Shown: positions 20,667-55,663 of the stretch, one piece after another
Numbering within the stretch: position 1 is the stretch's first letter
Layout of the letters: each line of letters opens with the position of its first letter
Assembly (NCBI GenBank): GCA_017479935.1
Contig: JAFVBO010000124.1
Location: 2,922 to 66,921 of the forward strand
DNA: 64,000 nt
Direction: 5' to 3'
Source of the DNA: Lachnospiraceae bacterium
GTDB lineage: Bacteria; Bacillota; Clostridia; Lachnospirales; Lachnospiraceae
Notes under the pieces: generated by a model
Seen by the model: only the letters and a program-made list of their open reading frames with translations
Told to the model about the DNA's origin: nothing
Databases searched by the model: none
Translations under genes and position numbers: made by a program

Positions 20667-20783
20667 GTGACAGGGGACGGGCCTGTGTCACATTGAAAAT
20701 GTGACACAGGCCCGTCCCCTGTCACCTCCCAGGCCCATCCTCTGTCACCTTCGAAATTGTGACATAGGCCCGTCCCCTGTCAC
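20667..20783. repeat. palindromic repeat cluster A (inverted pair + 1.5 further units)
   Basis: GTGACAGGGGACGGGCCTGTGTCAC (20667-20691) and its reverse complement (20701-25) form a stem of about 28 bp. A half unit at 20730-50 and a further unit at 20756-83 follow. The cluster ends 8 nt from the Rrf2 stop codon. Confidence 0.9.
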
Positions 20784-20790
20784 CTTTCCG

Positions 20791-21195
20791 TCACCCCTTC
20801 TTCAGCAAATCAACCAGCCGCTTTCCATAGAAGAAATCATGCGTCAGCTTGTTATATTCAGCCCAGAGCGGCAGGGTCTCGCAGGCCGCTGCTCTGGGGC
20901 AGGGGGCCGCCCCGTTCTCCAGGCAGGCGACCGTTGCCATCGTCCCTTCCATCAGCTCGATTATTTCTCCCACCGAATAGTCCTCCGGTTTCCGGCAGAG
21001 TTTGTAGCCGCCGCCTTTGCCGCTGGCACCGACAAGCAGTCCGCCGGCGACCATGTCTTTTACAATGATCTCCAGATATTTTTTGGAAATCTCCTGCCTG
21101 GCGGCAATATCCTTCAGCGGAATATAGCTGCCGGTATCGTTCTCGGCCAGATCGATCATGACGCGGATCGCATATCGTCCTCTCGTAGAAATCAT
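20791..21195 (-). CDS. Rrf2 family transcriptional regulator (IscR/CymR-like)
   Basis: AAGGAG RBS plus ATG at 21195. 'MISTRGRYAIRVMIDLA' is an Rrf2 HTH, and the protein carries a C-terminal Cys cluster (C..C....C). Confidence 0.85.
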   Translation of the reverse strand: MISTRGRYAIRVMIDLAENDTGSYIPLKDIAARQEISKKYLEIIVKDMVAGGLLVGASGKGGGYKLCRKPEDYSVGEIIELMEGTMATVACLENGAAPCPRAAACETLPLWAEYNKLTHDFFYGKRLVDLLKKG

Positions 21196-21370
21196 AGGAA
21201 ACTCCTTTCCTGGCATACGCCGTATCTGTTCAGGCGCCGCGCAGTTATATTGGTCCTATTATACAGTAGGCGAGTAGGCAAATCAAGAGTTTATTTTTCA
21301 ATTACCTATTGACATAGTATGCGAATGGGATTATAATGGGCCCACCAAACAGAGAAAGGAGCTTAACGCT

Positions 21371-22555
21371 TTGATATACGCGGATAACGCCGCAACTACA
21401 AAGATGAGCGATAAAGCCATACAGACGATGGCCTGTCTGCTTCAGGAAGCGTGGGGCAACCCGTCCAGCCTGTATGTACACGGGCAAAAAGCAAAGGAAG
21501 TCCTTGAACAGGCGCGGGAAGATATTGCTTCCGTCATCGGGGCGTCCGCTCAGGAAATTCTTTTTACCTCCGGTGGCAGCGAAGCCGATAACCAGGCGCT
21601 CCGGACAGCGGCAGAACTCGGGAAAAAGAAGGGAAAACGGCATATCATCTCCACGACTTTTGAGCATCATGCCATATTACATACACTGGAAACTTTAAAA
21701 AAGGATGGATTTGACATCACGCTTCTGGATGTTCACGAAAACGGCATCGTAATCCCTGCCGAGGTGGAAGCGGCCATCCGCGAGGACACCTGTCTGGTAA
21801 GCATCATGTATGCCAACAATGAGATCGGAACGATCCAGCCGATCCGGGAGATCGGGGCGATCTGTCGCCGGAAGGGCGTGCTGTTCCATGTCGATGCGGT
21901 GCAGGCCGTGGGTCATATCCCGGTCAACGTCGTGGATGACAACATCGACATGCTCTCCTCTTCCGCGCACAAGTTCCACGGCCCGAAGGGCGTCGGTTTC
22001 CTGTATGCGAAAAAAGGCATCCGCCTTACCAATCTGATCGAGGGCGGCGCGCAGGAGCACGGAAAGCGGACCGGTACAGAGAATGTGCCGGGGATCGCGG
22101 CCATGGCGGAAGCCTTAAAGGAAGCGGACGCGAACATGGCTGCCTATGCGGAACATCTCATAAAAATGAGAAACCGTCTCATCCAGGGCCTACAGGAAAT
22201 CCCGCATTCCGCCTTAAACGGCGACGCCACGCAGCGGCTTCCCGGCAATGTGAACTTCTGCTTTGAGGGGATCGAAGGCGAATCCCTGCTGCTGCTTTTG
22301 GATGACAAGGGCATCTGTGCCTCTTCGGGTTCTGCGTGTACCTCCGGTTCGCTCGATCCGAGTCATGTTCTGCTCGCCATTGGCCGAATTCACGATGTAG
22401 CCCACGGTTCCCTTCGCTTAAGTATCGGGGAGGATATCACCGAAGAGGAAGTGGATTACATCATTCAGTCGACCAAGGAGGTTGTCGCATATCTGCGCAG
22501 TTTCTCCCCGGTCTGGCGCGATCTGATGGCAGGCAAGAAGGAATTTATTCTATAA
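21371..22555 (+). CDS. nifS: cysteine desulfurase (NifS/IscS class)
   Basis: 'IYADNAATT', a 'SSAHKFHGPKG' PLP-lysine motif and a 'SSGSACTS' active-site Cys loop. The start is TTG. Confidence 0.9.
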   Translation: MIYADNAATTKMSDKAIQTMACLLQEAWGNPSSLYVHGQKAKEVLEQAREDIASVIGASAQEILFTSGGSEADNQALRTAAELGKKKGKRHIISTTFEHHAILHTLETLKKDGFDITLLDVHENGIVIPAEVEAAIREDTCLVSIMYANNEIGTIQPIREIGAICRRKGVLFHVDAVQAVGHIPVNVVDDNIDMLSSSAHKFHGPKGVGFLYAKKGIRLTNLIEGGAQEHGKRTGTENVPGIAAMAEALKEADANMAAYAEHLIKMRNRLIQGLQEIPHSALNGDATQRLPGNVNFCFEGIEGESLLLLLDDKGICASSGSACTSGSLDPSHVLLAIGRIHDVAHGSLRLSIGEDITEEEVDYIIQSTKEVVAYLRSFSPVWRDLMAGKKEFIL

Positions 22556-22569
22556 GGGGGGGTTAGGTC

Positions 22570-22965
22570 ATGGCTTTATACAGTGAAAAGGTGATGGATC
22601 ATTTCCGCAATCCTCGCAATGTCGGCGTAATTGACAACGCAGACGGTGTCGGTGAGGTCGGAAATGCCAAGTGCGGCGACATCATGAAGATGTACCTGAA
22701 AATTGATGACGACGTGGTGAGCGACGTGAAATTTGAAACGTTCGGCTGCGGCAGCGCCATCGCGTCCAGCTCCATGGCGACGGAGCTGATCAAGGGCAAG
22801 CCCCTTTCCGAAGTGAAACAACTGACAAACAAGGCGGTTTCGGAGGCGCTTGACGGCCTGCCCGCTTACAAAATGCATTGCAGCGTCCTCGCAGAGGAAG
22901 CCATTCATTCAGCTTTAGACGACTATTACAGCAAACATCCGGAGAAGAAACCAGAGGAGGAATAA
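22570..22965 (+). CDS. nifU: Fe-S cluster assembly scaffold (NifU N-terminal/IscU type)
   Basis: 'YSEKVMDHFRNPRNVG...GNAKCGD.M......FETFGCGSAIASSS'. Confidence 0.9.
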   Translation: MALYSEKVMDHFRNPRNVGVIDNADGVGEVGNAKCGDIMKMYLKIDDDVVSDVKFETFGCGSAIASSSMATELIKGKPLSEVKQLTNKAVSEALDGLPAYKMHCSVLAEEAIHSALDDYYSKHPEKKPEEE

Positions 22966-22970
22966 GACTT

Positions 22971-24260
22971 ATGGCAAACTATCAGTTCGAAACATTACAG
23001 CTTCATGTAGGACAGGAAAATCCCGACCCGGCCAGCGATGCGCGTGCGGTGCCGATTTACGCGACCACCAGCTATGTGTTCCACAATTCCGAGCACGCGG
23101 CGGCCCGCTTTGGCCTTGCCGACCCCGGCAACATCTATGGGCGACTGACGAACTCCACGCAGGGCGTGTTTGAAACGCGAATCGCAGCCTTGGAGGGCGG
23201 CGTCGCAGGGCTTGCCGTGGCCTCCGGTGCCGCGGCGATCACCTACACCATCCAGGCGCTGGCCGCCAAGGGCGAGCACATCGTCAGCCAGAAGACGGTT
23301 TACGGCGGTTCCGCGAACCTGTTGGCGCACACCCTGCCTCTGTACGGGATCGACACGACCTTTGTCGATATTCATAAACTCGACGAGGTGGAGGCAGCCA
23401 TTTTACCTAACACGAAAGCGATCTATATTGAAACGCTCGGCAACCCGAACAGCGATATTCCCGACATCGAAGCGGTCGCTGCCATCGCGCACGCGCACGG
23501 CATTCCGCTGGTCATCGACAACACCTTCGGAACGCCTTACCTCATCCGTCCGCTGGAGCACGGGGCAGATATCGTCGTCCACAGCGCCACCAAATTTATC
23601 GGTGGCCACGGTACAACCCTGGGCGGTGTGATCGTCGACGGCGGATCGTTCGACTGGGCGGCCTCCGGCAGATATCCCTGGATCAGCGAGAAAAATCCCA
23701 GCTACCACGGGGTGAAGTTCACGGAGGCGGCGGGCAAGGCCGCGTTTGCCACCTACATTCGCGCCATCCTGCTGCGCGACACCGGCGCCTGCATCTCTCC
23801 TTTTGCCGCGTTCCTGTTGCTGCAGGGCACGGAAACGCTGTCCTTAAGGATTGAGCGTCACGCGGAGAATACCAAGAAGGTGGTCGACTATCTGGCCAAT
23901 CACCCGCTGGTGGAAAAGGTCAACCACCCGTCTCTGCCTGACCATCCCGATCACGCGCTCTACGAGAAGTATTTCCCGAACGGCGGCGCATCGATCTTCA
24001 CCTTCGACATCAAGGGCGGGCAGAAGGAAGCGTTCGCTTTCATCGACGGCCTGGAGCTGTTCTCTCTGCTGGCGAACGTTGCCGATGTCAAGAGCCTCGT
24101 CATTCACCCGGCAACGACCACGCATTCCCAGCTCACCACCGAGGAGCTGGAGGCATCGGATATTCACCCGAACACCATCCGCCTCTCCATTGGCACAGAG
24201 CATATCGATGACATCATTGCGGATCTGGAGAAGGGATTTACGGCTGTTGGCAAGGGCTGA
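22971..24260 (+). CDS. metY: O-acetylhomoserine/O-acetylserine sulfhydrylase (MetY-type, PLP-dependent)
   Basis: ATG at 22971 after GGAGG. 'FETLQLHVGQE.PDP...ARAVPIY.TTSYVF' and 'HSATKFIGGHG' (PLP Lys). Confidence 0.85.
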   Translation: MANYQFETLQLHVGQENPDPASDARAVPIYATTSYVFHNSEHAAARFGLADPGNIYGRLTNSTQGVFETRIAALEGGVAGLAVASGAAAITYTIQALAAKGEHIVSQKTVYGGSANLLAHTLPLYGIDTTFVDIHKLDEVEAAILPNTKAIYIETLGNPNSDIPDIEAVAAIAHAHGIPLVIDNTFGTPYLIRPLEHGADIVVHSATKFIGGHGTTLGGVIVDGGSFDWAASGRYPWISEKNPSYHGVKFTEAAGKAAFATYIRAILLRDTGACISPFAAFLLLQGTETLSLRIERHAENTKKVVDYLANHPLVEKVNHPSLPDHPDHALYEKYFPNGGASIFTFDIKGGQKEAFAFIDGLELFSLLANVADVKSLVIHPATTTHSQLTTEELEASDIHPNTIRLSIGTEHIDDIIADLEKGFTAVGKG

Positions 24261-24266
24261 TGAAAA

Positions 24267-24323
24267 GCTGACAGGGGACGGTTCTGTGTCAGAAATTCTG
24301 ACACAGAACCGTCCCCTGTCAGC
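24267..24323. repeat. palindromic repeat cluster B (perfect inverted pair)
   Basis: GCTGACAGGGGACGGTTCTGTGTCAGAA-A-TTCTGACACAGAACCGTCCCCTGTCAGC forms a 28-bp perfect stem. It sits between the convergent stops of metY (24260) and the PrsW-like gene (24329). Confidence 0.9.
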
Positions 24324-24328
24324 TTTCG

Positions 24329-24967
24329 TCAGCTTTTTGTCATCCTCATCCATCCAAAGCGCATCCACAGCTGCAACAGGCTCAGAAGAGCCGGAAGGAC
24401 AAAGGCCCATACCCGCAGGTGCGATTGAATCAAGGTATTAAAAATCGCATGATACGTGATTGCCGTAATCAGCAAAGAAAACGTACCACAATAAAACAGT
24501 TTCCGGCGCTTTCGCACATAGCTGATGCCCAGACCGACAAGCGAGGTGCAGGTGCTGTGCATCAGCGCCGCCCCCATTCCCCGGGCAAACGCCCAGGCGA
24601 TACTGACGGTACTGATGTTCCTTGTCAAGATCACCAGATTCTCCAGCAAGGCAAACCCGAGGCCCATGGCAAAGGAATTCGCCAGAATCATGTTCCTGTC
24701 ATCCGACACGGCCTCCGCATAAAAGAGGATGGGGATCGCCTTTAAGATCTCTTCGGAAACAGGCGTGATGTTGGTCGTGACGTACAGCAGGTCATTTCCG
24801 AATGCGGCAAGAAGCAGGTCGTTTACCTCCGAGGAGATCAGGCACACCGTCGTTCCGCCCAGAAGAAACCCCAGAAACTGCCGCGACTTCTGATCCGGCA
24901 AAAGGAAAATGACCGGTAAGATTGGTATGGACACGCATAAAAACAGAATAATCGTCAGGTTCTCCAT
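24329..24967 (-). CDS. PrsW-family intramembrane protease-like protein
   Basis: Polytopic, with 'SEEILKAIP', 'GLGFALLENL' and 'HS.C...VG...YHAIFN' motifs in PrsW order. Confidence 0.65.
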   Translation of the reverse strand: MENLTIILFLCVSIPILPVIFLLPDQKSRQFLGFLLGGTTVCLISSEVNDLLLAAFGNDLLYVTTNITPVSEEILKAIPILFYAEAVSDDRNMILANSFAMGLGFALLENLVILTRNISTVSIAWAFARGMGAALMHSTCTSLVGLGISYVRKRRKLFYCGTFSLLITAITYHAIFNTLIQSHLRVWAFVLPALLSLLQLWMRFGWMRMTKS

Positions 24968-25620
24968 GCTTTCACCCCGCGATCCATCACCGGTACAACC
25001 GCTGCCGCAAGGGCAGTGATCACCATTCGCACAGCCAGCAGAAGCAGCTTGTTTCCATATGCGTCCGCCGCCATTTCCACCATCAAAAAGCCCCCCAACG
25101 CAAGCGCCAACGCGTTAAAATGCCTCAGGCAACGCACCACCCCATAGTCCACATCCGGGATCAGCAGGTGCTTAACATGGAAGTAAAAAGCAGCCGCCAG
25201 AAAAACAGTCAACACGGCCTGCGAAGCCTTGCTTCCCACGCTTTGCGGGCCAAAGGCCAGCGGCAGATACAGCAGAATAGCCAATAGCGGTCCCAACAGC
25301 GCTATCCTTCGATAGCGCCGAAAAGCCGGGCCGCCATCGTCAACCAGCGAATCAATCTGGCTATAATTGGAAGAAAAGAAAAAGGAAGACGCTCCCGCCA
25401 CTCCCAGCATGCCAATCTGAAAGCCATCCGTTTCGGGAAACCCGGCGGCAATCCTGACACATTGGTATAGCCGTCCCAGCATCAGAGACGTTATTCCGAG
25501 CACAATCATGGACGCATATAGCGGTTTTTTCGGCTGTAAATACCGCGGTCCTCCATACAGGAACCCGCTGAGCGCCCCCAGCATAACCGCCAGGTTTCCC
25601 CAAAATTGTTCCATATCCAT
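24955..25620 (-). CDS. polytopic membrane protein, unknown function
   Basis: 221 aa with about 6 hydrophobic segments. It overlaps the downstream gene by 13 nt. Confidence 0.6.
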   Translation of the reverse strand: MDMEQFWGNLAVMLGALSGFLYGGPRYLQPKKPLYASMIVLGITSLMLGRLYQCVRIAAGFPETDGFQIGMLGVAGASSFFFSSNYSQIDSLVDDGGPAFRRYRRIALLGPLLAILLYLPLAFGPQSVGSKASQAVLTVFLAAAFYFHVKHLLIPDVDYGVVRCLRHFNALALALGGFLMVEMAADAYGNKLLLLAVRMVITALAAAVVPVMDRGVKAWRT

Positions 25621-25656
25621 CCTTTTCTCCTAAGTGTTAACCGTGTGTGACTGGGA

Positions 25657-25685
25657 GTGTGACAGAGGCCCGTCCCCTGTCACAC
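25657..25685. repeat. palindromic repeat, single unit C
   Basis: GTGTGACAGAGGCCCGTCCCCTGTCACAC. The TCA at 25680-82 inside the unit is the TGA stop of the 1305-aa gene. Confidence 0.85.
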
Positions 25686-28600
25686 TTTCCGTTTTCCAAA
25701 CAGGTAACCTGCGCCAAAGCCCAGCGCTGCGGCAAGCAAAGCTACCACCACGAGAAGTCCTCCCTGGCCCATTCCGCCAAAGACACTGGCCGTTTCGCTG
25801 GGATCCTCGGAAGCCTCTGGCGTTTCCTCCGCAGGCGCAGTTTCTTCCGCTCCGCCAAACGAGCCCACTTCCTCCGGCAATTCCAGCTCTTCCGGCGCCT
25901 CTGTGGCTTCCGTTTCGGGAGCCTCCGTCTCAGGCACTTCCATTTCCGGTTCTACCACAGTTTCCGTTTCCGAAACCTCCGTCTCTGGAGTCTCCGTCTC
26001 AGGCACTTCCGTTTCCAGTTCTACCACAGCTTCCGTTTCCGAAACCTCCGTCTCAGGTACCTCCGTCTCAGGCACTTCCGTTTCCGGTTCTACCACAGTT
26101 TCCGGTTCCGAAACCTCCGTCTCTGGAGCCTCCGTCTCCAGAACTTCCGTTTCCGGTACCTCCGTCTCTGGCACTTCCGTTTCCGGTTCTACCACAGCTT
26201 CGGTTTCTGAAACCTCCGTCTCTGACACTTCCGTCTCCAGAACTTCCGTTTCCGGCACCTCCGTCTCTGGCACTTCTGTCTCTGGCACTTCTGTCTCAGA
26301 AACTTCCGGCTCCGGCACTGGCTCAGCGTGATAAACGGCCGTGTAAACAGCGGGGCCGCTCACATCCACAATCTCCGGACTCCAACCCTCGAAGGTATAG
26401 AAGAATTCAGCCGTCTGTTCCTTCATGGGTGCGGCCGGCACCGTGATCTGATCCGCCTTTGTGCCGTAGGCAAGGCTTGACTCCTGAAGAATGGTCTGCC
26501 CGTCCTCCGTCACGAACGTGACAGGATACTTGCGAACGGTCTTCCGATAGGCAGCCTTGAAGGTGAGGTCTGTCCAGACATCAATGACTCTTCGGCTCCA
26601 GCCGATGAAGGAGTTCTCATACTGGGCGTCGATGGGCTTGGCGGGCATTTCCGGGATCTCGATTTCTGAGCCGCTGGTGCCATATGGATATCTCTTCTGC
26701 AGCAGCACCGTATCATCCGAATCCAGGAACGTAACGGTGCACCAGTTCTCCGATGTCTTGCGGGTCAGCGTGCATAACAGGTTTACTTCTTCCGGAATAG
26801 GCGCATCCCCCTGCCATTCATTCTGATAGAATGCGGAACCCGCATAGATCCAGGATCCATCTGCATCGTAATGGTCCGGCTCCTGATAGCGAAGTTCCCC
26901 GCCAAACGGATCAATGGTAATGTCTCCCTTCGCATCCCAGGTGATCGGGCTGTATCCCGTCTCCGAAAATTCTCCCTCTAAGATCGAACCTTCCAGAATG
27001 TAGTCGTACTCAAAGCTTCGCGGCCGCAGGTCGGTTGAATCATAGATCAGAATCTTCAGCGTCTGATAAAGCAGACGCGGCATTCCGTACCAGTCTTCCG
27101 TCCAGTAGAACAGATCGATGCTTTGAGTCTGGCCGTTCACCAGGTTGATGTCTTCTGAAGTATAATCATTATAGTTCCGATCCTGTGTATGATACGAATC
27201 CACCTGATAGGTTTGCATATCTACAATCGCCGGAAATACCTTTTCATCTGCCCCGCCGGTCGAATCCTCGACCTGGTAGGTGATATTCACCGTGAGCTTT
27301 TTCGCGACCGGTAGCCACTTGGCATACAGAGTCGTGTTCTCAAAGACAGGCGTTTCAAAATCAAAGGGATCGCCATCCAGCCAGCGGTTCGTGTACCAGC
27401 CGCCAAAGGAGGCTCCGGTTCTCTCTGGCGTTTCCGGCTCAGGGATGCAGCTTCCCTCTTCGATCTCCAGCGGCTCCATCGGATTGCCGCCCTTCACCTC
27501 AAACTCCACGCGATAGGTGGGAAGAGGTTCCACCGGTTCGGGTGCCGGCGTCAGGGACACGTAAGCCTCGTTCCCGTCCGGAACCAGGTAGTACCCTTCA
27601 TCGCTGACAAAGCTGGACAAAGCCGCTTCATCCACAAGTCCGTTCAGGAACAGAATCGATACATCTTCTTTCGGCTTCTCATCCGTGGTAACGCCAATCT
27701 GCGACTCTTCCGATAAGTGATCCCCTACCGTAATGACACAGGGCATATACTTGGAACTGACAATGTACACGTTGTTCTCGGTTCCATCCGCCAGGGTGTT
27801 TCCGGTAATGATCGTCTTTCCGGCGATCGTCAACGTGCTGGGGCCTTCCGATCCCACGCCCGTGATGTAGATACCGGCGCCGCGCCCCTTGGCCGTGTTC
27901 CCCGTAATCGTCACATCCGTCAGGGACAGATGGCCGACCGGTGATACCCGGATACCGGCTCCGTAATCGTCGTTGCCGCCGGTGATGAGGCCGGGGCCTG
28001 TCACGTTCAAGGTACCATGAACAAAGAGAACCGGGGCCATCTTGCTCTCCCCTGCTCCTTGCAGGTGCCGGTCCAGCGTGTGTCCGTTCAGGTTCAGGTT
28101 CACCGTCGCGCCACGCGGCACTATCATAATATACGAGTTTTCATTGGCTACAATATCATCCGGCAAGGTGATATCCAGTGTGTCCCCCGCCTCTGCCCTG
28201 CTGATCAGCCTCTGCAGGCTGTACCATGTCATTTTGAAAACCGCGCGCAGGGTGGTGTCTTCCTCAAGGATCATCTTTTCTCCGGGCTGAAGCAGGTTTT
28301 CCTCATCCTCTCCCACTTGCCAGCCTAAAAACTCCATGCCTTCCGGTTCCAGGTAAAAGCGCTGCTTTACCGTAATCTCGGTTCCTCTTAACGCCAGGAT
28401 CGGCCAGTCTTCACCAGGATATTCATCCGCTGTATAGGTGATGGTGCAGAAGTCCAGCTCGGCCGGGAAATTGCTTCTCCAGATCAACCTGGACATATAA
28501 TCCGTCATGAAATCGGAATACACCCACCCATAAAAGTACTCCGGAGTCCCAAAGAAGGGCTGTAAACCATTGTACAGAACCGGATTGGCTACTTCCGCCA

Positions 28601-29597: not shown

Positions 29598-29670
29598 ATT
29601 CTACCTCCTTCATATTATTGATGAAGATAGTCTAAACCAAGCTTTCCTGAAAGTCAATAAGGCTGAGAAA

Positions 29671-29777
29671 GGAAGGGGACGGACCTGTGTCACATTTTCA
29701 ATGTGACACAGGTCCGTCCCCTGTCACCTCCAGGCCCGTCCCCCATCACCTTTTCTGACACAGAACCGTCCCCTTCC
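29671..29777. repeat. palindromic repeat cluster D (four units, nested)
   Basis: GGAAGGGGACGGACCTGTGTCACAT / ATGTGACACAGGTCCGTCCCCTGTCACC is an inverted pair. AGGCCCGTCCCCCATCACC and TCTGACACAGAACCGTCCCCTTCC follow. The outer GGAAGGGGACGG and CCGTCCCCTTCC are also mutually complementary. Confidence 0.9.
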
Positions 29778-29882
29778 AAAACCATTTGCGCTCCGCCTAA
29801 GGACATGATATAGTTAAGCTGAGTCCACAAAGGACGAGACGATACAGCGCACATGCGCACAGGAAAAGAAGGAGGAGCCGGT

Positions 29883-30638
29883 ATGTATAAACTTTGGAAA
29901 ACACTGGAAGAAGCAAAGAAACTGAAGTGGGTGGAACTGTCCCACGAGCTGACCAATGAAAGCCCTTACTGGAGCGGTATTCCGGAAGGCAGTGTGGAAC
30001 TTGGCAAGGTAGTTTACGACTGGGGAAATCCCATGCTGGAATGCGTGATTCAGACGTTTAAGTTTCCGGGCCAGTTCGGCACGCATATCGATTTCCCCGG
30101 ACACTTTGTGAAGGAAGGCGTGCGTTCTTCGGCGTTTGGTGTCAAGGATGGCGTATTCCCTCTTTGCGTGGTGGATATCACGGAGAAAGTCGCGAAAGAT
30201 CCTCATTATGCGGTGAAAGCAAAGGACATCGAGGAATACGAAGAAAAGTACGGTCCGATTCCGGACGGCGCGTTTGTGGCGCTGCGCACGGACTGGTCGA
30301 AAAACTGGCCGGATATGAACGCCCTCTCCGGCATTGCGGAGGATGGCAGTGAGAACTTCCCCGGATGGTCGTTGGAGGCGTTACAGTACATTTACGAAGT
30401 AAGACATGCGGCGGCCAACGGTCACGAAACCCTGGACACGGATGCCTCTGCGGAAGCCGCGAAAGCCGGGGATCTGGCCTGCGAGCGGTATGTACTGGAG
30501 CGGGGGAAACTCCAGGTGGAAGTCCTGTGCAACCTGGATCAGGTGCCTGCAGCCGGCGCGGTTGTCTTTGTCGCCTGGCCGCGGATCGCCGACGCCGTGG
30601 GGCTGCCGGTGCGGGTTTGGGCTGTAACGGAGGAGTAA
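29883..30638 (+). CDS. cyclase family protein (kynurenine formamidase-like)
   Basis: AAGGAGG RBS plus ATG at 29883, and a 'GQFGTHIDFPGHF' (H.GTH.D.P.H) motif. Confidence 0.8.
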   Translation: MYKLWKTLEEAKKLKWVELSHELTNESPYWSGIPEGSVELGKVVYDWGNPMLECVIQTFKFPGQFGTHIDFPGHFVKEGVRSSAFGVKDGVFPLCVVDITEKVAKDPHYAVKAKDIEEYEEKYGPIPDGAFVALRTDWSKNWPDMNALSGIAEDGSENFPGWSLEALQYIYEVRHAAANGHETLDTDASAEAAKAGDLACERYVLERGKLQVEVLCNLDQVPAAGAVVFVAWPRIADAVGLPVRVWAVTEE

Positions 30639-30798
30639 GCTGACAGGGGACAGATCTGTGTCACAAAAGATGATAGCGGGACGGGTCTGGATGACAGGGG
30701 ACGGGCCTGTGTCACAAAAGCGATCCGCTTTTGTGACACAGACCCGTCCCCTGTCATCCAGACCCGTCCCCTGTCATCTTTCAGGCTCGTCCCCTTCC
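30639..30798. repeat. palindromic repeat cluster E (compound, 45-bp stem)
   Basis: It starts at the base after the cyclase TAA and ends at the base before the acetyltransferase stop. The arms 30678-30722 and 30726-30770 are complementary with one mismatch. Extra units lie at 30639-68 and 30778-98. Confidence 0.9.
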
Positions 30799-31443
30799 TC
30801 ACTGCCAGAACAGATCCTCATCCGCCTCAGCTGTGATCTTCTGCCAGACTTCCTCGTCGATCTCCTCATCCTTGAACAGTTTTCTTCTGTCTGCTTCCGT
30901 AATCTTCCGGATCACGCGGCAGGGATTACCGGCTGCGATCACCCCGTCCGGGATGTCCTTCGTAACCACGCTGCCCGCTCCGATCACAGTGTCGTTCCCG
31001 ATATGCACCCCGGGGACAATCACAACGCTGCCGCCGATCCAGACGCGATCGCCGATGGACACGCTCTTGCCGTACTCATATCCGCTCGCCCTCGTCTTCG
31101 GGTGCACCGGATGTCCCGCGGTATAAATGGAAACATTCGGCCCGAATAAGCAGTCGTCGCCGATGGTGATGGGCGCTACGTCGATCAAAACGCAGCCATA
31201 ATTTGCGAAAAAATTCTTTCCGATCCGGATATGCGTGCCATATTCACAGTAAAACGGCGGAATGATAAACAGTTCCTCCGAATTGGGAAGCACTTCCTTC
31301 GCGGCAGCGTTCACCTGCTCATAGTCCCACGCATCCAGTGAATTTAATATCTTTAACTTTTTCTTGCACTCTGCCATTTCGGCGAACACGTCCGCGTCGC
31401 CAAAATAGGCCAATCCCAGATCTCGTCTCTCTCCGTTGGTCAT
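30799..31443 (-). CDS. sugar O-acetyltransferase (maltose/galactoside acetyltransferase family)
   Basis: N-terminal Mac-like helix region followed by hexapeptide repeats: 'IGDDCLFGPNVSIYTAGHP...IGDRVWIGGSVVIVPGVHIGNDTVIGAGSVV'. Confidence 0.85.
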   Translation of the reverse strand: MTNGERRDLGLAYFGDADVFAEMAECKKKLKILNSLDAWDYEQVNAAAKEVLPNSEELFIIPPFYCEYGTHIRIGKNFFANYGCVLIDVAPITIGDDCLFGPNVSIYTAGHPVHPKTRASGYEYGKSVSIGDRVWIGGSVVIVPGVHIGNDTVIGAGSVVTKDIPDGVIAAGNPCRVIRKITEADRRKLFKDEEIDEEVWQKITAEADEDLFWQ

Positions 31444-32645: not shown

Positions 32646-32781
32646 GTGCGCTCCTCCTGATGTACCCGTGCCCATCATGGTCTTCCATTAGAATCAGATT
32701 AAGCTTAACACGGGGAAAGGGAGGAGGCAATCAACGCGTAGTTGAAAGTCAGGGTTGTTTCATGAACGCTGCGATATCAAA

Positions 32782-35631: not shown

Positions 35632-35648
35632 ATTTTCTGAAGGGGAAA

Positions 35649-35745
35649 GGTGACAGGGGACGGGTCTGTGTCACAATTACTGACAGATGTCAGAAATTGT
35701 GACACAGGCCCGTCCCCTGTCATCTCAGACCCGTCCCCTGTCAGC
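35649..35745. repeat. palindromic repeat cluster F
   Basis: GGTGACAGGGGACGGGTCTGTGTCACAATT is followed by the mini-palindrome CTGACAGATGTCAG, then AATTGTGACACAGGCCCGTCCCCTGTCAT and CTCAGACCCGTCCCCTGTCAGC + TTTTTT. The final TCA is the stop of gene 35741..36139. Confidence 0.9.
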
Positions 35746-36139: not shown

Positions 36140-36160
36140 TCCATTGCTTTCGAAATTGAA

Positions 36161-36187
36161 GCTGACAAGGGTCGGTTCTCTGTCAGC
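36161..36187. repeat. degenerate palindromic repeat unit H
   Basis: GCTGACAAGGGTCGGTTCTCTGTCAGC keeps the GCTGACA/TGTCAGC termini. Compared with cluster B the loop has 3 substitutions. Confidence 0.6.
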
Positions 36188-36193
36188 TCCCTC

Positions 36194-36610
36194 TTATCCC
36201 AGCACCATCAGCAGCGTCCCCGCTCCAATCATGATGCAACCAATCAGGCTCTTCACTGAAAAATCCTCATGAAGGAACACAAAGGCCAATACCAGCGTGA
36301 TAATCACACTCAGCTTGTCAATCGGCACCACCTTAGAGGCATCTCCCATCTGGAGCGCCTTATAGTAACAAAGCCAGGAGGCTCCTGTCGCCAATCCGGA
36401 CAGAATCAGGAAAATCCAGCTTTTGGGGCTGATATCTTTCAAGCCGTTCTGTGCGTTTGTCAAAAATACCATGCCCCAGGCCATGGCTACCACAACCATG
36501 GTACGGATTGCGGTCGCCAGATTGGAATTCACGCCCTCAATGCCAATCTTGGCGAGAATAGATGTCAAGGCTGCGAACACCGCGGACCCTAACGCAAACC
36601 AGAACCACAT
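36194..36610 (-). CDS. EamA-like (DMT superfamily) small transporter
   Basis: ATG at 36610, then 'MWFWFALGSAVFAALTSILAKIG', 4-5 TM segments, and a single EamA domain length. Confidence 0.7.
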   Translation of the reverse strand: MWFWFALGSAVFAALTSILAKIGIEGVNSNLATAIRTMVVVAMAWGMVFLTNAQNGLKDISPKSWIFLILSGLATGASWLCYYKALQMGDASKVVPIDKLSVIITLVLAFVFLHEDFSVKSLIGCIMIGAGTLLMVLG

Positions 36611-36921
36611 ACTGCGCCTCCTCAAGTTTCCTTTGATAAAAATATTGTTTTTGTCAACTGATAAACTTCATCAAAATAATCATCAATTAAGTTCAGTCAA
36701 ATCAAGGATATTATACTACCCACTCCGCTCAGCGTCAACCTTCACATCCCTATTTGATGCGGCCTTTGTCATCCATTCGCAAATAAATATTTACTTTTGA
36801 ATATTATCGTGCTAAAATGTATAAAAATACACAGTCATTCCGTGCAGAATTCCACGCACCGGCATGAATCGTTACGCACATTTCACTTTGGGCACAATGC
36901 TTACTCAGAAAGGAGGCACCT

Positions 36922-39015
36922 ATGGTTGGCTTTACAGCAATCCTATTCACTGGTATCGGCGCGCTTCTCGCCCTTGCCTTTTCACTTTGGAAATATTTCA
37001 GCGTTCAAAAACAGCCGGAGGGCACCCCGGAAATGGCCCGGATTTCGCGGTCCATTTCCGAGGGTGCAAATGCCTATCTGAAGAGGCAGTACGGAGGCGT
37101 CGGTCTTTTTATGGCTGTCGTCTTTCTCCTCATGGCTTTTCTGGCTGTTGGGGGAATGCTCACCTGGTTCACGCCGTTTGCCTTCATTACCGGCGCGTTC
37201 TTTTCAGGCCTGTCCGGATTTATTGGGATGAAAACCGCCACCATGGCAAACTGCCGCACGGCCAATGCCGCTTCGAAGAGTCTGAACGGAGGGCTGCGGG
37301 TTGCGTTCGATGCCGGTTCCGTCATGGGGTTCACCGTTGTCGGGCTCGGACTTCTGGATCTGACGCTATGGTATTTTCTTTTGAATAATGTCTTTCACCT
37401 GGAGCTAAATGAAATCACCGCTAATATGCTTACCTTCGGGATGGGCGCTTCCTCCATGGCTCTGTTTGCCCGCGTGGGCGGTGGGATCTTCACAAAAGCG
37501 GCCGATGTGGGAGCCGATCTTGTTGGTAAAGTCGAAGCCGGCATCCCGGAAGATGATCCCCGCAATCCAGCGGTTATCGCCGATAACGTAGGGGATAACG
37601 TGGGTGATGTAGCCGGTATGGGAGCCGATCTGTACGAATCGTACGTCGGTTCCATTATATCCACCGCCGCCTTAGGGGTAGCCGCCGGCTACGGTGAAAA
37701 CGGCGTCGCCCTTCCGCTTCTTCTGGCCGCCCTGGGCGTGGTGGCCTCCATCGCTGGCACCTTTTTCGTCAAAACAAAAGAAAGCGCTTCCCAGAAGAAT
37801 CTTCTGAAAGCGCTGCGCACCGGAACCTATATTTCCGCTGGTCTGGTTCTTCTCATTGCCTTGATCGCCGTACGATTGCTTTTGCCATCCCACTCAGGAA
37901 TTTACTGGTCTATCCTCTCCGGTCTGATTGCGGGTGTTCTGATCGGTGCCATTACTGAATACTATACTTCAGACAGCTATAAACCCACACAACATCTGGC
38001 GGACTCCTCGCAGACAGGCGCGTCCACCATCGTGATCAACGGCCTGTCGCTGGGAATGCTCTCCACGCTGGGGCCTGTCATCGTTGTCTGTGCGGCAGTT
38101 CTCATCGCCTTTTACTGCGCCCGCGGCGCTGATGGCAACTTCTATCAGGGATTGTATGGCATCGGGATCTCCGCGGTAGGTATGCTTTCTACACTTGGCA
38201 TTACACTGGCAACGGACGCCTATGGTCCGATCGCCGATAATGCGGGCGGCATTGCGGAGATGACCGGTCTGCCGCCGGAAGTGCGCGAACGGACCGACGC
38301 CTTGGATTCCCTTGGCAATACCACCGCCGCCACGGGAAAGGGCTTTGCCATCGGTTCCGCGGCGCTGACAGCGCTGGCCTTAATGGTTTCTTACATCAAC
38401 AAGGTGGAGACCATCTCCGCTGCCAGCCAAAGCACTTTTGTGTTCAACCTGTCCCTCACCAACCCTTCTGTACTGGTCGGATTGTTCATCGGAGGCGTGC
38501 TTCCGTTTCTGTTCGCCGCCCTCACAATGTCTGCCGTCGGCAAAGCCGCCCAGGCCATCGTCATGGAAGTGCGCCGCCAGTTCCATGAAATCACGGGCCT
38601 CCTGGAAGGCCAGGCGGAACCGGATTACCGCACCTGCGTGGACATGTGCACCAGATCCGCCCAGAAGCTGATGATCGCGCCTACGCTGATCGCCATGATC
38701 ATTCCGGTTCTTGTCGGCCTGATCCTTGGGCCCGACGCGGTGGTGGCCCTCCTTGCCGGCAATACGGTCACCGGCTTTGTGCTCGCCATCATGATGAGCA
38801 ACGCCGGCGGCGCCTGGGACAATGCCAAGAAATATATCGAAGCCGGTCATTTAGGCGGCAAAGGTTCGGACAATCATAAAGCTGCCGTCGTGGGTGATAC
38901 CGTCGGTGATCCTTTTAAGGACACCTCCGGGCCGTCCATCAACATCCTGATTAAGCTCTGTTCAACGGTTTCCATTGTATTTGCCGGGTTGACTGTGGCG
39001 ATACATATTTTGTGA
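36922..39015 (+). CDS. hppA: membrane-bound proton/sodium-translocating pyrophosphatase
   Basis: 697 aa with the hallmark H+-PPase motifs 'GGGIFTKAADVGADLVGKVE', 'DNVGDNVGD' and 'GDTVGDPFKDTSGPS'. Confidence 0.95.
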   Translation: MVGFTAILFTGIGALLALAFSLWKYFSVQKQPEGTPEMARISRSISEGANAYLKRQYGGVGLFMAVVFLLMAFLAVGGMLTWFTPFAFITGAFFSGLSGFIGMKTATMANCRTANAASKSLNGGLRVAFDAGSVMGFTVVGLGLLDLTLWYFLLNNVFHLELNEITANMLTFGMGASSMALFARVGGGIFTKAADVGADLVGKVEAGIPEDDPRNPAVIADNVGDNVGDVAGMGADLYESYVGSIISTAALGVAAGYGENGVALPLLLAALGVVASIAGTFFVKTKESASQKNLLKALRTGTYISAGLVLLIALIAVRLLLPSHSGIYWSILSGLIAGVLIGAITEYYTSDSYKPTQHLADSSQTGASTIVINGLSLGMLSTLGPVIVVCAAVLIAFYCARGADGNFYQGLYGIGISAVGMLSTLGITLATDAYGPIADNAGGIAEMTGLPPEVRERTDALDSLGNTTAATGKGFAIGSAALTALALMVSYINKVETISAASQSTFVFNLSLTNPSVLVGLFIGGVLPFLFAALTMSAVGKAAQAIVMEVRRQFHEITGLLEGQAEPDYRTCVDMCTRSAQKLMIAPTLIAMIIPVLVGLILGPDAVVALLAGNTVTGFVLAIMMSNAGGAWDNAKKYIEAGHLGGKGSDNHKAAVVGDTVGDPFKDTSGPSINILIKLCSTVSIVFAGLTVAIHIL

Positions 39016-39033
39016 TACAAATATAAAAAAGTT

Positions 39034-39056
39034 GAAGGGGACGGTTCTGTGTCAGC
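39034..39056. repeat. palindromic repeat, partial single unit G
   Basis: GAAGGGGACGGTTCTGTGTCAGC + TTTTTT lies between the hppA stop and the P-type ATPase stop. Confidence 0.75.
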
Positions 39057-39060
39057 TTTT

Positions 39061-41145
39061 TTATGTCTGCGGCAGCAGCGGCGTCAGGCAGTCCATGCTT
39101 AAGAGAAGCGTAGAGCCGTTGTGCAGAAGAGCGGACATTGCCGGCGACAACAGTCCGAAAGCGCCGAGGGCGATCAGGCTTCCGTTGAAGCCCATCACAA
39201 AGCGGTAATTCCTGTCGATACGCTTCATCAGTCTCTCGGATAGTCTCCGCAGCAGCACCAGCTCCCGCAGATCCTCCGCGGCGATCGTGATGTCCGCCAC
39301 CTCACGGGCAACGCTGGCTCCGCTTCCGATCGCGATTCCCACATCCGCCAACGACAGGGCAGGCGCGTCGTTGATGCCATCACCGATCATGGCGATAGTC
39401 TGTCCCCGTCCTTGTGCCTCGCGAATGAAAGCAGCCTTGTCTTCGGGCAGTACCTCCGCACAAAACTCATCGATCCCGAGCTCTCTCGCGATGGCGGCCG
39501 CCGTATTACGGTTGTCCCCGGTGAGCATGACGATATGGCCGACGCCGGCCTCATGCAGAAGCTCCACCATCTCCTTCGCCTCCGGGCGCAGCGGATCATA
39601 GATTCCAATGGCTGCTGAGAGGACGCCACCGATCGCCAGATAAAGCCATGAGCGGTCCGATGTCAGCGCATCGAATGCCCTCTTATCTTCGGGCAGTACG
39701 GTCGCCCCTTCATCCTCAAAGACAAAATGACGGCTGCCGATGACAACGCGCTCCTCCCCGATCCGTGAGGCGATCCCATGAGCCACCACGTACTCCACTT
39801 CCCGGTGCATCTCCTGGTGATCAAGGCCCCGTTCCTTCGCAGCCCTGACCACGGCATTCGCCACGGAATGGGGAAAATGTTCCTCCAGGCAGGCGGCGAC
39901 CCGCAGCATCTCCCTCTCGTTCTGGCCGTGGAAGGCCACCACATCACACACCGTAGGGCAGGCGTTCGTAAGCGTACCCGTCTTATCAAAAACAACCGTA
40001 TCCGTCTGGCTTAAGATCTCCATGTACTTGCCGCCCTTGACCGTGATCCTGTGTCTGCCGGCTTCCCGCATGGCGGACAGAACGCTTAAGGGCATGGAAA
40101 GCTTCAGCGCGCAGGAAAAGTCCACCATCAACACCGAAACCGCCCTTGACGCATTACCGGTCAGGAGCCAGGTAAGAAGGCTTCCGCCAAGACACCAGGG
40201 AACCAGTTTGTCCGCCAGCGTGTACGCGTGTCTCTCGGTGCCGGACTTCAGGCGTTCCGATTCCTCAATCATCCGTACAATGCGGTCATAGCGGTTTTCA
40301 CCGGCGGCATGCGTCACGCGAACCACACAGTTTCCCTCCTCCACGACCGAGCCTGCGAAAACAGCCGAGCCCGTGCGCTTCGCAACCGGAACGGATTCGC
40401 CGGTAAGGGAGGCCTGATTGACCATCACCTCACCCTGATCCAGGATCCCATCCAACGGCAGCACGTGCCCGGTATGAACCACAATCCTGTCTCCGGCCTC
40501 AATGCTTGTAAGCGGTACCAGTGCCTGCTTCCCGTCTTCCTCAAGCCGCCAGACCTGATCCACATGCAGGGACATGCTCTTCGCCAGATCGTCCACCGAC
40601 TTCTTGTGTGTCCACTCATCCAGCGTATCGCCGAGTCCTAAAAGAAAGCGCACCGATCCGGCGGTCGAATAGTCGCCGGTCAGGAGAGAGGCGCCAAGGG
40701 CAACACCGTCCAGAACCTCCACGGTAAGCTTCCTCTGCGCCAATGTTTTCGCAGCCAGCCACAGGCGGGGAATAGCGCGCAGAGTATTGATCATCCTGCG
40801 CACCGGCACAGGAAGAAACAGCCTCTTTGCGCAGTGCCCCAGCACCTGGAAAACCATTTTTTCCTTATACTCCCGGTTGATACGGCGACTGTTTACGCTA
40901 AGCACATGCGCCTCTTTCCTTGCTTCCTCATAGGAAAAGCGCGACAGCTGTCGATAAAGGGAAGCCCGGTCCCCGTGAAACAGAATGATCAGGTTTCCCA
41001 GCCTCTCGTGTACGGTCACCTGATCAACACCGGGAAGGGCCAGGATCCAGGCCTCAAGAAGATCCGCCTGTTCCATGCTTATGGAACGCTGTGCTGCTTT
41101 CAGGCGCACCCGCCCTGTGCTTTCATGAAGAATCTGAAACCTCAT
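39061..41145 (-). CDS. P1B-type (heavy-metal-like) P-type ATPase with SCA transmembrane motif
   Basis: 'DKTGTLT', 'TGDN' and 'GDGINDAP' are present. TM6 reads 'FSCALKLS' instead of CPC. The N-terminal domain lacks CxxC. Confidence 0.85.
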   Translation of the reverse strand: MRFQILHESTGRVRLKAAQRSISMEQADLLEAWILALPGVDQVTVHERLGNLIILFHGDRASLYRQLSRFSYEEARKEAHVLSVNSRRINREYKEKMVFQVLGHCAKRLFLPVPVRRMINTLRAIPRLWLAAKTLAQRKLTVEVLDGVALGASLLTGDYSTAGSVRFLLGLGDTLDEWTHKKSVDDLAKSMSLHVDQVWRLEEDGKQALVPLTSIEAGDRIVVHTGHVLPLDGILDQGEVMVNQASLTGESVPVAKRTGSAVFAGSVVEEGNCVVRVTHAAGENRYDRIVRMIEESERLKSGTERHAYTLADKLVPWCLGGSLLTWLLTGNASRAVSVLMVDFSCALKLSMPLSVLSAMREAGRHRITVKGGKYMEILSQTDTVVFDKTGTLTNACPTVCDVVAFHGQNEREMLRVAACLEEHFPHSVANAVVRAAKERGLDHQEMHREVEYVVAHGIASRIGEERVVIGSRHFVFEDEGATVLPEDKRAFDALTSDRSWLYLAIGGVLSAAIGIYDPLRPEAKEMVELLHEAGVGHIVMLTGDNRNTAAAIARELGIDEFCAEVLPEDKAAFIREAQGRGQTIAMIGDGINDAPALSLADVGIAIGSGASVAREVADITIAAEDLRELVLLRRLSERLMKRIDRNYRFVMGFNGSLIALGAFGLLSPAMSALLHNGSTLLLSMDCLTPLLPQT

Positions 41146-41414
41146 GCCTGTTCGCCATCTTCGATAAACGCAGCCTCTTCTTCCGCTTTCTTTGCGGTCC
41201 TTGCTTCGTTGATCGCCTTTGCGTCAGCCAGAATGTCCGAGCAGTTCTCCTGTACATTCTCTACATCTCGCATGATCTCGTCCTTGCAGCGAAGCACAGC
41301 CGCCGTGACATGCGTATAAACCTTGCGTGCGTCCTCACTGCCGAGCAGTTTAAGGCCAGCAGAGCCAAAAAGTGTTCCTCCGACAAATAATGCAATCTTT
41401 CCTACTGGAATCAT
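41142..41414 (-). CDS. small protein (DUF6110-like), translationally coupled to the ATPase
   Basis: GGAGGACAGGAAGG RBS plus ATG at 41414. It has one N-terminal hydrophobic segment and an acidic C-terminus. Its stop overlaps the ATPase ATG (ATGA). Confidence 0.6.
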   Translation of the reverse strand: MIPVGKIALFVGGTLFGSAGLKLLGSEDARKVYTHVTAAVLRCKDEIMRDVENVQENCSDILADAKAINEARTAKKAEEEAAFIEDGEQA

Positions 41415-41620
41415 CCTTCCTGTCCTCCTTTTTCCCGGCTTATGCCGGATTGATTTTCTTCCCGTTCTTCCTCGGGGATCGTCTTCACGCGAAAAACGAA
41501 ATAAAAAAAGTGACAGACCCATACGATGGCCAGGATCATGCAGGGAATCCAGATTCCTTTCCGTGCCATCATGAAGAAACCAAAGCCCATCAGAAGCGTG
41601 ACAGTGGCAATGATCGACAT
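41411..41620 (-). CDS. small 2-TM membrane protein
   Basis: 69 aa (MSIIATVTLLMGFGFFMMARKGIWIPCMILAIVWVCHFFYF...). Its stop overlaps the next start (ATGA). Confidence 0.5.
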   Translation of the reverse strand: MSIIATVTLLMGFGFFMMARKGIWIPCMILAIVWVCHFFYFVFRVKTIPEEEREENQSGISREKGGQEG

Positions 41621-41745
41621 CTTCGTCTGTTTGCCACTATTTGTTAGAATAAGCTAACCATTCAGGTAAAAAAAAGAGCCGGAATAAGTTATGCGCTTCT
41701 AACCGGCTCATATTATAGAACACTTTCCTCACAAATGCAAGAAAA

Positions 41746-41771
41746 TCTGACACCGAACCATCTCCTGTCGG
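41746..41771. repeat. degenerate palindromic repeat unit I
   Basis: TCTGACACCGAACCATCTCCTGTCGG resembles TCTGACACAGAACCGTCCCCTGTCAG with about 4 changes. It lies 3' of the STAND gene. Confidence 0.5.
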
Positions 41772-55662: not shown

Positions 55663-55663
55663 G

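Follow-up and report, generated by a model that had tools for sequence, protein, structure and literature searches.

Which class of repeat do the short palindromic units belong to that crowd one part of a 64-kb stretch from an uncultured Lachnospiraceae metagenome-assembled genome (MAG)? The units are approximately 25-27 nt long and occupy nine sites of this stretch, which we refer to as the window. Here, we argue that they are very likely hairpin repeats of the repetitive extragenic palindromic (REP) kind, present as single units, as doublets resembling REPINs, and as clusters resembling bacterial interspersed mosaic elements (BIMEs), and cognate to the REP-associated tyrosine transposases (RAYTs) of the Clostridia-type subclass 2.1, alias RAYT Group 1 or TIRYT. 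The original prediction, made from the window sequence, had named either REP/BIME or BOX/RUP/Correia elements. The former is supported by a RAYT gene which is bracketed by the units in relatives. The latter, all of them miniature inverted-repeat transposable elements (MITEs), is in poor agreement with units of approximately 25 nt that lack target-site duplications. Repeats of this kind are already known, while the Lachnospiraceae/Clostridia family and its loop and stem architecture appear not to have been described before. Within the literature collection searched, the motif strings GACAGGGGACGG and GGGGACGGTTCT or their complements yielded no relevant paper.

Palindromic units and doublets in the window

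The 25-mer GTGACACAGGCCCGTCCCCTGTCAC has nine matches in the window at up to three mismatches, against 0.00 expected from 100 dinucleotide shuffles. A position-weight matrix (PWM) scan together with a 23-mer search (up to four mismatches) collects 19 units, all of which are located within 20666-41772 and none elsewhere in the window. Real units score between 15 and 45, the shuffle maximum being 12.6. Even the degenerate or truncated copies, at 36161-36187, 39030-39056 and 41746-41772, score above this maximum. The core 8-mer CCGTCCCC/GGGGACGG occurs 17 times, always between 20.67 and 39.04 kb. Since approximately six partial units stand in tandem with full ones in addition to the 19, the predicted count of at least 20 units or half-units within 21 kb, and none in the other 43 kb, is correct, and all nine sites named along with it are real. 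The local density amounts to about one unit per kb across these 21 kb. Within the unit, a stem [G/C]TGACA...TGTCA[C/G] closes a loop of approximately 13 nt, GGGGACGG(N3-4)CTG. As in REP/REPIN-RAYT systems, this is a short, multi-copy, extragenic and imperfect palindrome in the range of 20-40 nt.

Known RNA families do not account for the units. In an Rfam scan of the window at gathering thresholds tRNAs alone pass, and at E <= 1 there appear merely sub-threshold matches to models of eukaryotic miRNA precursors. These models describe generic long hairpins, and we take the matches as artefacts caused by the long perfect hairpins. Zero exact matches to the unit were obtained from the IMG/VR viral contigs, and the window doublet is unmatched in the PLSDB plasmids. 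The orientation of single units with respect to transcription or GC skew is split 4 versus 3 and hence uninformative.

Five of the nine sites are head-to-head doublets with hairpins of 23-57 bp. Their order is constant, with GGGGACGG on the plus strand first and CCGTCCCC thereafter. Arm lengths and complementarities are 31 nt (100%), 31 nt (100%), 45 nt (98%) and 38 nt (92%); the fifth pair, doublet D, has a 23-bp stem and a degenerate outer left arm. Perfect 28-bp stems had been claimed for the inverted pairs, and the two perfect 31-nt arms go beyond this. Folded as single-stranded DNA (ssDNA), the doublet sites reach -32 to -70 kcal/mol, with z = -7 to -18. In doublets A, B and D, the loop variant is shared by the two arms (GGCCC, GAACC and GGTCC, respectively) but changes from site to site; the arms of doublets E and F are unlike at one loop base (GGCCC vs GACCC).

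The relation between two of these doublets is informative. Doublet D (57 nt, 29674-29730) is a 96% reverse complement of doublet A (20664-20720), and this includes the asymmetric spacer TTGAAAA/TTTTCAA. Thus it was the doublet that was copied and not the single unit, as in REPINs, whose inverted doublets likewise fold into hairpins and are copied whole. Direct repeats or target-site duplications were found at none of the window sites, the flanks being inverted, which fits a Y1 enzyme and speaks against MITEs of the DDE type. Tandem partial copies consisting of one arm plus the loop recur in the window clusters as well as upstream of RAYT genes, and they may reflect the position of strand cleavage, in which case the cut would be expected near the point where the loop meets the 3' arm.

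A RAYT gene bracketed by the units in relatives

The exact pattern GACAGGGGACGGNNCTGTGTCA, which has 20 specified bases, was scanned against one genome per species (596 Gb), where approximately one chance match is expected. At least 32 loci of species-representative genomes matched. Among the 32 matches listed, none of which stems from the source genome, 17 belong to Lachnospiraceae UBA4348, and others to Porcincola, Lachnospiraceae NE2001, Acutalibacteraceae, Clostridiaceae, Gracilibacter and Thermoanaerobacterales; those listed from outside the Clostridia are one Eggerthellaceae MAG and two Bacteroidales MAGs. Several listed loci carry 3-6 units in 8 kb. With the motif matched in many Clostridia and a few other taxa, this is a dispersed family, as anticipated, rather than a local duplication, and the units do not lie inside conserved coding sequence.

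Six-frame translations of the fetched loci were searched by phmmer with an E. coli RAYT query that served as a lead only; its matches were then tested independently. Two RAYT open reading frames (ORFs) were found, at 1187-1930 of locus L009 and at 6367-7119 of locus L023. Each is bracketed exactly, by an upstream unit with GGGGACGG on the coding strand and by an inverted copy directly after the stop codon. The two proteins share 45% identity. They match Pfam Y1_Tnp (3e-14 and 1.5e-14, respectively) and pass the NCBIfam model NF047646, REP-associated tyrosine transposase, with 87.7 and 84.1 bits at a cutoff of 80. Their best match in the PDB is 4ER8, the E. coli TnpA-REP (6e-10).

The RAYT-like family comprises 1336 clusters at E <= 1e-10. 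Four homologues (44-49% identical), picked for their long contigs alone, all show the same geometry, with a unit approximately 47-70 nt upstream of the ATG and an inverted unit 0-9 nt past the stop codon, and are surrounded by 4-10 additional units per 20 kb. Inverted bracketing is present in six out of six individually checked loci. A RAYT had been predicted outside the window, and such a gene, bracketed by inverted units in the manner of a REPtron, is indeed found in relatives (L009, L023, L034-L042). The repeats are dispersed as singles, dimers or clusters, as in TIRtron/TIRYT systems; loci L036, L038 and L040 contain 8-10 units in 20 kb. In the cultured Acetoanaerobium noterae DSL2, a RAYT of 36% identity (NZ_CP154629.1, 421884-422633) is flanked by AATCA...AGGGACGGTTCT...TGATT hairpins, and the 2.6-Mb replicon has at least 29 places matching the hairpin. 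A RAYT-like 'transposase' of Collinsella aerofaciens (30% identical) was rejected as a member of the same system, since no such hairpins were found nearby, and therefore represents a different lineage.

A metagenome scan with the family alignment added 80 loci (L043-L122). Upstream of the gene, GGGGACGG (up to one mismatch) is found on the coding strand in 63 of 72 loci, and in 14 of 72 for the control in opposite orientation. Downstream, its reverse complement is present in 57 of 74 loci (control: 17 of 74), and both flanking copies occur together in 47 of 66. The associated proteins measure 247-259 aa and carry the motifs NH[VLI]H, GHLFQDRF, YIH[QYN]NP and YSSY, that is, the HUH motif as well as that of the catalytic tyrosine (Y-x3-NP). 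N59, H60, H62, Y119, I120, H121, N123 and P124 are invariant in the RAYT alignment A1. Near the C-terminus follows a helix-turn-helix-like segment, G[LIV]S[IV]RQI, to which Pfam HTH_38 matches weakly. Many of the homologues are situated on contigs of 0.9-1.5 kb, hardly longer than the gene itself, which is consistent with assemblies breaking at the multi-copy flanking hairpins.

The upstream copy differs from the downstream one in a further respect. The 3' arm of the upstream hairpin runs into a TTGAC(A) box resembling a -35 element in 24 of 64 loci (L043-L122), vs 0 of 59 downstream copies, and in 43 of 64 loci the loop lies 59-67 nt away from the ATG. Judged by sequence, the upstream repeat seems to contain the promoter of the transposase gene, which hints at a possible autoregulation of the RAYT.

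Comparison of the loci reveals the general architecture of the element, a 7-bp stem and a conserved 13-nt loop, in which a nearly invariant GGGGACGGTTCY is joined by one variable base. The seven stem positions are paired in 60-75% of the sequences, which were not selected for pairing, and each of them by several Watson-Crick types. Slid registers give 19-62% pairing, and the observed pairing at each of the seven positions exceeds that in all 2000 shuffles. In the window-type family, the two outermost pairs covary (TA 44 / AT 33; AT 42 / GC 20 / CG 11). A freely covarying stem together with a conserved loop is as expected of a folded single-strand substrate that is recognised by a protein.

The assignment to subclass 2.1 follows from the protein. 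In the scheme of Quentin et al. 2018 (PMC6006769), subclass 2.1 of TnpA-Y1 corresponds both to Bertels' RAYT Group 1 and to what Di Nocera et al. 2013 named 'TIRYT'. Its members have a median length of approximately 238 aa, NHVH/NH[YF]H, W[EQ]/FQ, Y[IV]HLNP-type and SS motifs, and a C-terminal helix-turn-helix (Table 1, PMC6006769), and the proteins found here agree with them in size and motifs. Group 1 occurs in Clostridia, with modest counts of flanking 16-mers (Bertels et al. 2017, PMC5581495). TIRYT genes are flanked by 'TIRs' sharing GGGGWSAS (Di Nocera, De Gregorio & Rocco 2013, PMC3733652), which sometimes form moderately abundant families of singles, dimers and clusters; Clostridia or Firmicutes are mentioned neither in the text nor in the supplements of that study (PMC3733652). 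GGGGACGG fits seven of the eight positions of GGGGWSAS, the comparison being with the published consensus and not with the individual sequences, and the GGGGACAG variants (L091, L077 and a second UBA4348 family) fit it exactly. The system shares with TIRtrons a RAYT-like protein of approximately 250 aa (NHVH, FQ, Y-x3-NP, SS, C-terminal helix-turn-helix) and a gene bracketed by inverted repeats with a GGGG-A-C core that are dispersed elsewhere as well. It differs in that the repeat is a defined hairpin with covarying stem and conserved loop, and locally dense.

Some of the collected loci show peculiar arrangements. At the UBA4348 loci L010, L014, L015, L030 and L032, units of the window type form the outermost arms of a second, nested palindrome of approximately 250 nt. 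This second palindrome has the outer motif GACAGGGGGACAGTCCT, and its GGGGACAG is the exact GGGGWSAS match. The nesting suggests that one repeat family was inserted into the spacer of another. In an Eggerthellaceae MAG of 63% G+C (L016, 1053-1134), a doublet plus partial unit is 90% identical over 77 nt to window 29674-29749. It is located at the 3' end of an MFS transporter gene on an actinobacterial contig, and its occurrence indicates either cross-phylum spread or a binning error. In two Prevotella/Bacteroidaceae MAGs (L001, 4395-5872, and L008), a cassette of two genes, one an unknown 139-aa ORF and the other of the RhuM family, is inserted after ribD and lies between two units of like orientation; the flanks of the two loci are almost the same, with three differences in approximately 105 nt.

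Sites and gene context in the window

A gene map was derived from Pfam scans. The midpoints of all nine sites are intergenic, at an intergenic fraction of 10.6% for 20.5-41.8 kb (P ~2e-9). The original prediction that every site is intergenic therefore holds for the midpoints, while three sites overlap ORF ends by 5-10 nt. Eight of the nine sites follow a gene's 3' end. Occupied are four of four convergent, four of eleven tandem and one of four divergent junctions. A location at a gene's 3' end had been claimed for every site, which fails at 29668-29780, between the start codons of divergent surface-protein and cyclase genes. In the following, sites are lettered in their order along the window.

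Site A begins with a full unit at 20666-20692 (minus strand; plus strand = GGTGACAGGGGACGGGCCTGTGTCACA; PWM 45.3, 0 mismatches), the left arm of doublet A, which forms a perfect 31-nt inverted repeat with 20698-20728. The right arm is the full unit at 20700-20726 (plus strand, PWM 45.3). A partial unit made up of loop and 3' arm (CCAGGCCCATCCTCTGTCACC; read in the sequence, repeat family D11) follows in tandem at 20728-20750 (plus strand), and then a full single unit at 20758-20784 (plus strand; PWM 42.7, 1 mismatch), whose degenerate tail overlaps the Rrf2 stop codon at 20791-20793. The stretch 20658-20792 folds as ssDNA with -49.1 kcal/mol (z = -11.7). Doublet B consists of two full units, a left one of the GAACC/CTGACA variant at 24267-24293 (minus strand, PWM 39.4) and a right one at 24297-24323 (plus strand; placed by PWM scan and gene map), within perfect 31-nt arms at 24264-24294 and 24296-24326. 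It folds with -40.5 kcal/mol (z = -15.1) and occupies the gap between convergent genes for a pyridoxal-phosphate enzyme and PrsW, leaving 3 and 2 nt. The single unit at 25658-25684 (plus strand, PWM 40.3; -10.6 kcal/mol, z = -3.2) contains, with bases 25680-25682, the stop codon of a 1305-aa surface-protein ORF.

At site D, between the divergent genes, the left arm is a unit with degenerate outer arm at 29668-29694 (minus strand, PWM 31.6) and the right arm a full unit at 29702-29728 (plus strand, PWM 43.7; fold -32.1 kcal/mol, z = -7.1). They are followed in tandem by the partial unit CCAGGCCCGTCCCCCATCACC at 29724-29750 (plus strand; PWM 9.9, core match) and by a single unit of the GAACC variant with degenerate 3' arm at 29754-29780 (plus strand; PWM 28.4, 2 mismatches). 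Site E spans the whole 160 nt between two stop codons and folds with -70.5 kcal/mol (z = -18.2). A single unit at 30639-30665 (minus strand, PWM 37.2) starts 1 nt past the cyclase stop codon. Next to it, a partial unit (5' arm plus loop) at 30669-30689 (minus strand, core match 30677-30688) makes up the outer portion of the left arm (45 nt) of doublet E. The doublet's full units are located at 30690-30716 (minus strand, PWM 45.0) and 30732-30758 (plus strand, PWM 44.0), in arms 30678-30722 and 30726-30770 that are 98% complementary. Two tandem partial units at 30752-30798 (plus strand, PWM 29.7; the first 30752-30778, the second, degenerate, 30778-30798) end 1 nt before the stop codon of a hexapeptide-transferase gene.

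Doublet F has its full units at 35649-35675 (minus strand, PWM 44.4) and 35698-35724 (plus strand, PWM 45.0), with arms 35648-35685 and 35688-35725 of 92% complementarity and a fold of -42.5 kcal/mol (z = -10.9). A tandem partial unit at 35719-35745 (plus strand, PWM 15.3) overlaps the DUF4234 stop codon by 5 nt. The spacer of this doublet (35676-35697) holds a mini-palindrome, CTGACAGATGTCAG, built from the same TGACA/TGTCA arms, which may be a collapsed inner doublet. The remaining three sites are weaker copies. A degenerate single unit is found at 36161-36187 (minus strand; PWM 23.3, 3 mismatches, fold z = -2.8) between the DUF4234 and EamA genes, and a single unit with diverged outer arm and A6 and T6 flanks at 39030-39056 (minus strand, PWM 22.8; site H) between convergent pyrophosphatase and P-type ATPase genes. 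The most degenerate copy, at 41746-41772 (plus strand; PWM 18.3, 4 mismatches), is situated downstream of an AAA_16 gene, and its fold is not significant (z = -1.1).

The units also give rise to spurious ORFs, and all four that had been pointed out exist. Three of them overlap Pfam-supported genes on the opposite strand (Rrf2, hexapeptide transferase and cyclase); with the cyclase gene, the ORF at 30539-30802 shares no more than the final ~100 nt. The same strain is represented by an independent metagenome contig (L033, 99.98% identical), which starts at 30721, between the arms of doublet E. This contig crosses the right-hand boundary between repeat-rich and repeat-free sequence, and this boundary is thus not an assembly chimera. 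The repeat-free flanks have in parts a somewhat lower G+C content (44-49% vs 50-59%), and their genes are nearly all co-directional. A tRNA cluster and three GH3 paralogues are located there, as is an RHS fragment.

Further observations on the window concern its genes. The tRNA cluster (2829-4716) comprises 15 tRNAs; among them, ARAGORN reports a tRNA-Ile with UAU anticodon at 2983-3055, adjoined by a low-scoring tRNA-Met(CAU) at 3058-3133. The UAU anticodon is uncommon in bacteria. In-frame tandem coding repeats occur at 25863-26342 with periods of 15/69 nt (ETEVP-type), within the C-terminal portion of the PI-PLC/Flg_new surface protein (1305 aa), and at 10060-10217 with a 30-nt period, in an FMN_bind/ferric-reductase ORF. 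The GH3 glycosidases (47190-50123, 50931-54128 and 61015-63918), of approximately 1000 aa, share DNA segments of 69-87% identity, and in each of them the C-terminal domain precedes the N-terminal domain, which is a permuted order. Positions 45008-45157 represent an orphan copy (94-95% identical) of 56695-56843, the 3' end of ORF 56696-57562. The copy adjoins the RHS-repeat fragment at 45339-45998 and may be a displaced toxin or immunity module.

Origin and meaning of the repeats

To our knowledge, REP/RAYT systems have been documented almost entirely in Proteobacteria, and it is with these that the Clostridia family has to be compared. With the canonical REP/BIME/REPIN elements of E. coli and Pseudomonas, it has in common short, extragenic and imperfect palindromes that form clusters, head-to-head doublets which fold into long hairpins and act as the copied unit, a preference for gene 3' ends and convergent junctions, and a single HUH/Y1 gene bracketed by inverted units, with TnpA-REP as the best structural relative. 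Unlike there, the host is a member of the Bacillota, the 5' GT[AG]G foot is missing, the determinant is a large 13-nt loop rather than foot and stem, and the transposase carries an extra C-terminal domain of approximately 110 aa. Canonical REPs are moreover largely genus-specific, whereas the loop core found here is common to several orders. A CGTC-tagged REP was considered because the unit contains CGTC. Such REPs (Neisseria dRS3, Rickettsia RPE-4/6) are small palindromes as well, mostly arranged as head-to-head dimers, but they feature an unpaired terminal CGTC tag, a stem of 8-9 bp starting with A/T, a loop of 4-5 nt, a CCA tail and no transposase. The assignment was rejected, as CGTC lies inside the 13-nt loop, the stem is a GACA-type one of 6-7 bp, the CCA tail is absent and a transposase is associated.

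We propose the following course of events. A single-copy transposase, itself bracketed by two inverted units, would be encoded elsewhere in the genome; that is, we infer that the source genome itself encodes a RAYT. By analogy with E. coli TnpA-REP and IS200/IS605, the enzyme would recognise the folded single-stranded hairpin via its loop, and it would cut and rejoin single-stranded DNA, probably at replication forks. Cleavage and rejoining of single-stranded REPs is known only for E. coli TnpA-REP. In this way units, and above all whole doublets, could be copied into intergenic DNA without target-site duplication, and insertions would survive chiefly just past stop codons, most of all between convergent genes. 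Once inserted, the hairpins would probably act as barriers or stabilisers at transcript 3' ends, and those with A/T-run flanks may act as bidirectional terminators.

Several observations weigh against this reading. No Y1 transposase was detected in the 64-kb window by phmmer and Pfam scans, in agreement with what had been stated about RAYT/IS200-like genes there. A phmmer match at 55614-55832 (E = 0.036) was discarded as a RAYT, as it is without Pfam support and falls in the frame of a LytTR response-regulator region. Quentin et al. report no REP-like sequences beside subclass 2.1 genes (PMC6006769). A GT[AG]G foot is absent from the base of the hairpin, the positions bordering the stem show no conservation, and the exact window-type stem (GACA/TGTC) is present in approximately 22 of the 80 metagenome RAYT loci. 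Presence/absence polymorphism was not seen in L033, the sole second copy of the locus, which has no indels. For the window pyrophosphatase, a protein of an NCBI MAG shares 100% identity, and the relatives that follow share 84% and 79%. The regions around its three nearest relatives are not syntenic and hold no units in 61 kb of Lachnospiraceae DNA; the distribution is patchy even within this family. All units are confined to 21 of the 64 kb, and this clustering counts likewise; the composition and gene content of the repeat-free flanks would be consistent with a restriction of REP families to older core regions. Finally, a role of the hairpins at the RNA level is speculative, with one of the nine sites passing a simple terminator scan.

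This last point leads to the view that the units are immobile terminators or RNA-stabilising hairpins selected by the host, alike by common function or local gene conversion. The positions after gene 3' ends, with every convergent junction occupied, are what such a function would predict, and so are the great stability of the hairpins, the A6/T6 flanks at 39024-39062 and the T-rich sequence after site B. However, a scan for hairpins plus T-runs accepts a single doublet, the one at 29675-29721 (minus strand), which is located in a divergent promoter region where no gene precedes it; partial T-runs are found at sites B, F and H and none at the other sites. The units are therefore not ordinary intrinsic terminators. 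Function alone would, furthermore, not keep a 13-nt loop across the orders of the Clostridia while the stem varies, and it leaves unexplained why the unit brackets a transposase gene and why a whole doublet was copied with its spacer. We consider this explanation unlikely.

An origin as MITEs, i.e., internally deleted insertion sequences of the Correia/RUP/BOX type moved by a DDE transposase, is favoured by the look of the doublets, which resemble a pair of terminal inverted repeats separated by a short spacer and ordered like the repeats around the autonomous gene, and the flanking repeats were in fact called 'TIRs' by Di Nocera et al. (PMC3733652). Like the units, MITEs (BOX, RUP, Correia/NEMIS) are intergenic, repeated and hairpin-forming, and affect the ends of neighbouring transcripts. 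They measure, however, 70-300 bp and come with terminal inverted repeats, target-site duplications or modular boxes, and DDE transposases, whereas the window holds units of 25-27 nt, among which single 25-nt units and tandem partials are common, with inverted and not direct flanks. The only gene consistently bracketed encodes an HUH/Y1 enzyme, and the stem covariation points to a folded single-strand substrate. On these grounds MITEs were rejected, and we regard them as very improbable. A role as DNA uptake sequences, or as sites of a chromosome-organising or regulatory protein, draws on the short core conserved across many taxa and on inverted pairs downstream of genes. Neisseria uptake sequences often form inverted pairs after genes, too. 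The C-terminal helix-turn-helix of the RAYT and the TTGAC box described above even suggest that some copies may be operators. Nevertheless, no link to competence was found, the absence from the 61 kb of three relatives is at odds with such sites, and a variable stem with a conserved loop fits hairpin recognition and not a duplex uptake signal, so that this proposal is hardly credible at all.

REP-like hairpins with a cognate subclass 2.1 RAYT thus remain our preferred explanation, and they have practical consequences. For annotation, units seed spurious ORFs and also lie on or against real stop codons; for assembly, they break metagenome contigs, as seen for the same-strain contig that ends inside doublet E. 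The Clostridia family offers a tractable comparative set for hairpin recognition by HUH/Y1 enzymes, with cultured carriers in Acetoanaerobium noterae DSL2, Porcincola intestinalis and Lachnospiraceae bacterium NE2001. The family is also relevant to the question of whether the largest RAYT class is truly without REP partners.

From a broader point of view, subclass 2.1, the largest class of RAYT-like transposases and one reported in 2018 to be without REP partners, might have its partner in a pan-Clostridia superfamily of loop-specified hairpins that reaches contigs of Coriobacteriia and Bacteroidales. We put this forward tentatively, as possible rather than probable. In such a superfamily, the loop GGGGACGGTTCY plus one base would be the invariant recognition element, the 7-bp stem would drift by compensatory change, and a -35 box in the upstream repeat would give autoregulation. 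If true, recognition specified by the loop would differ in its logic from that of GTAG-guided REPs, and it would explain a very common, unannotated repeat in genomes of gut and rumen Firmicutes that fragments metagenome assemblies.

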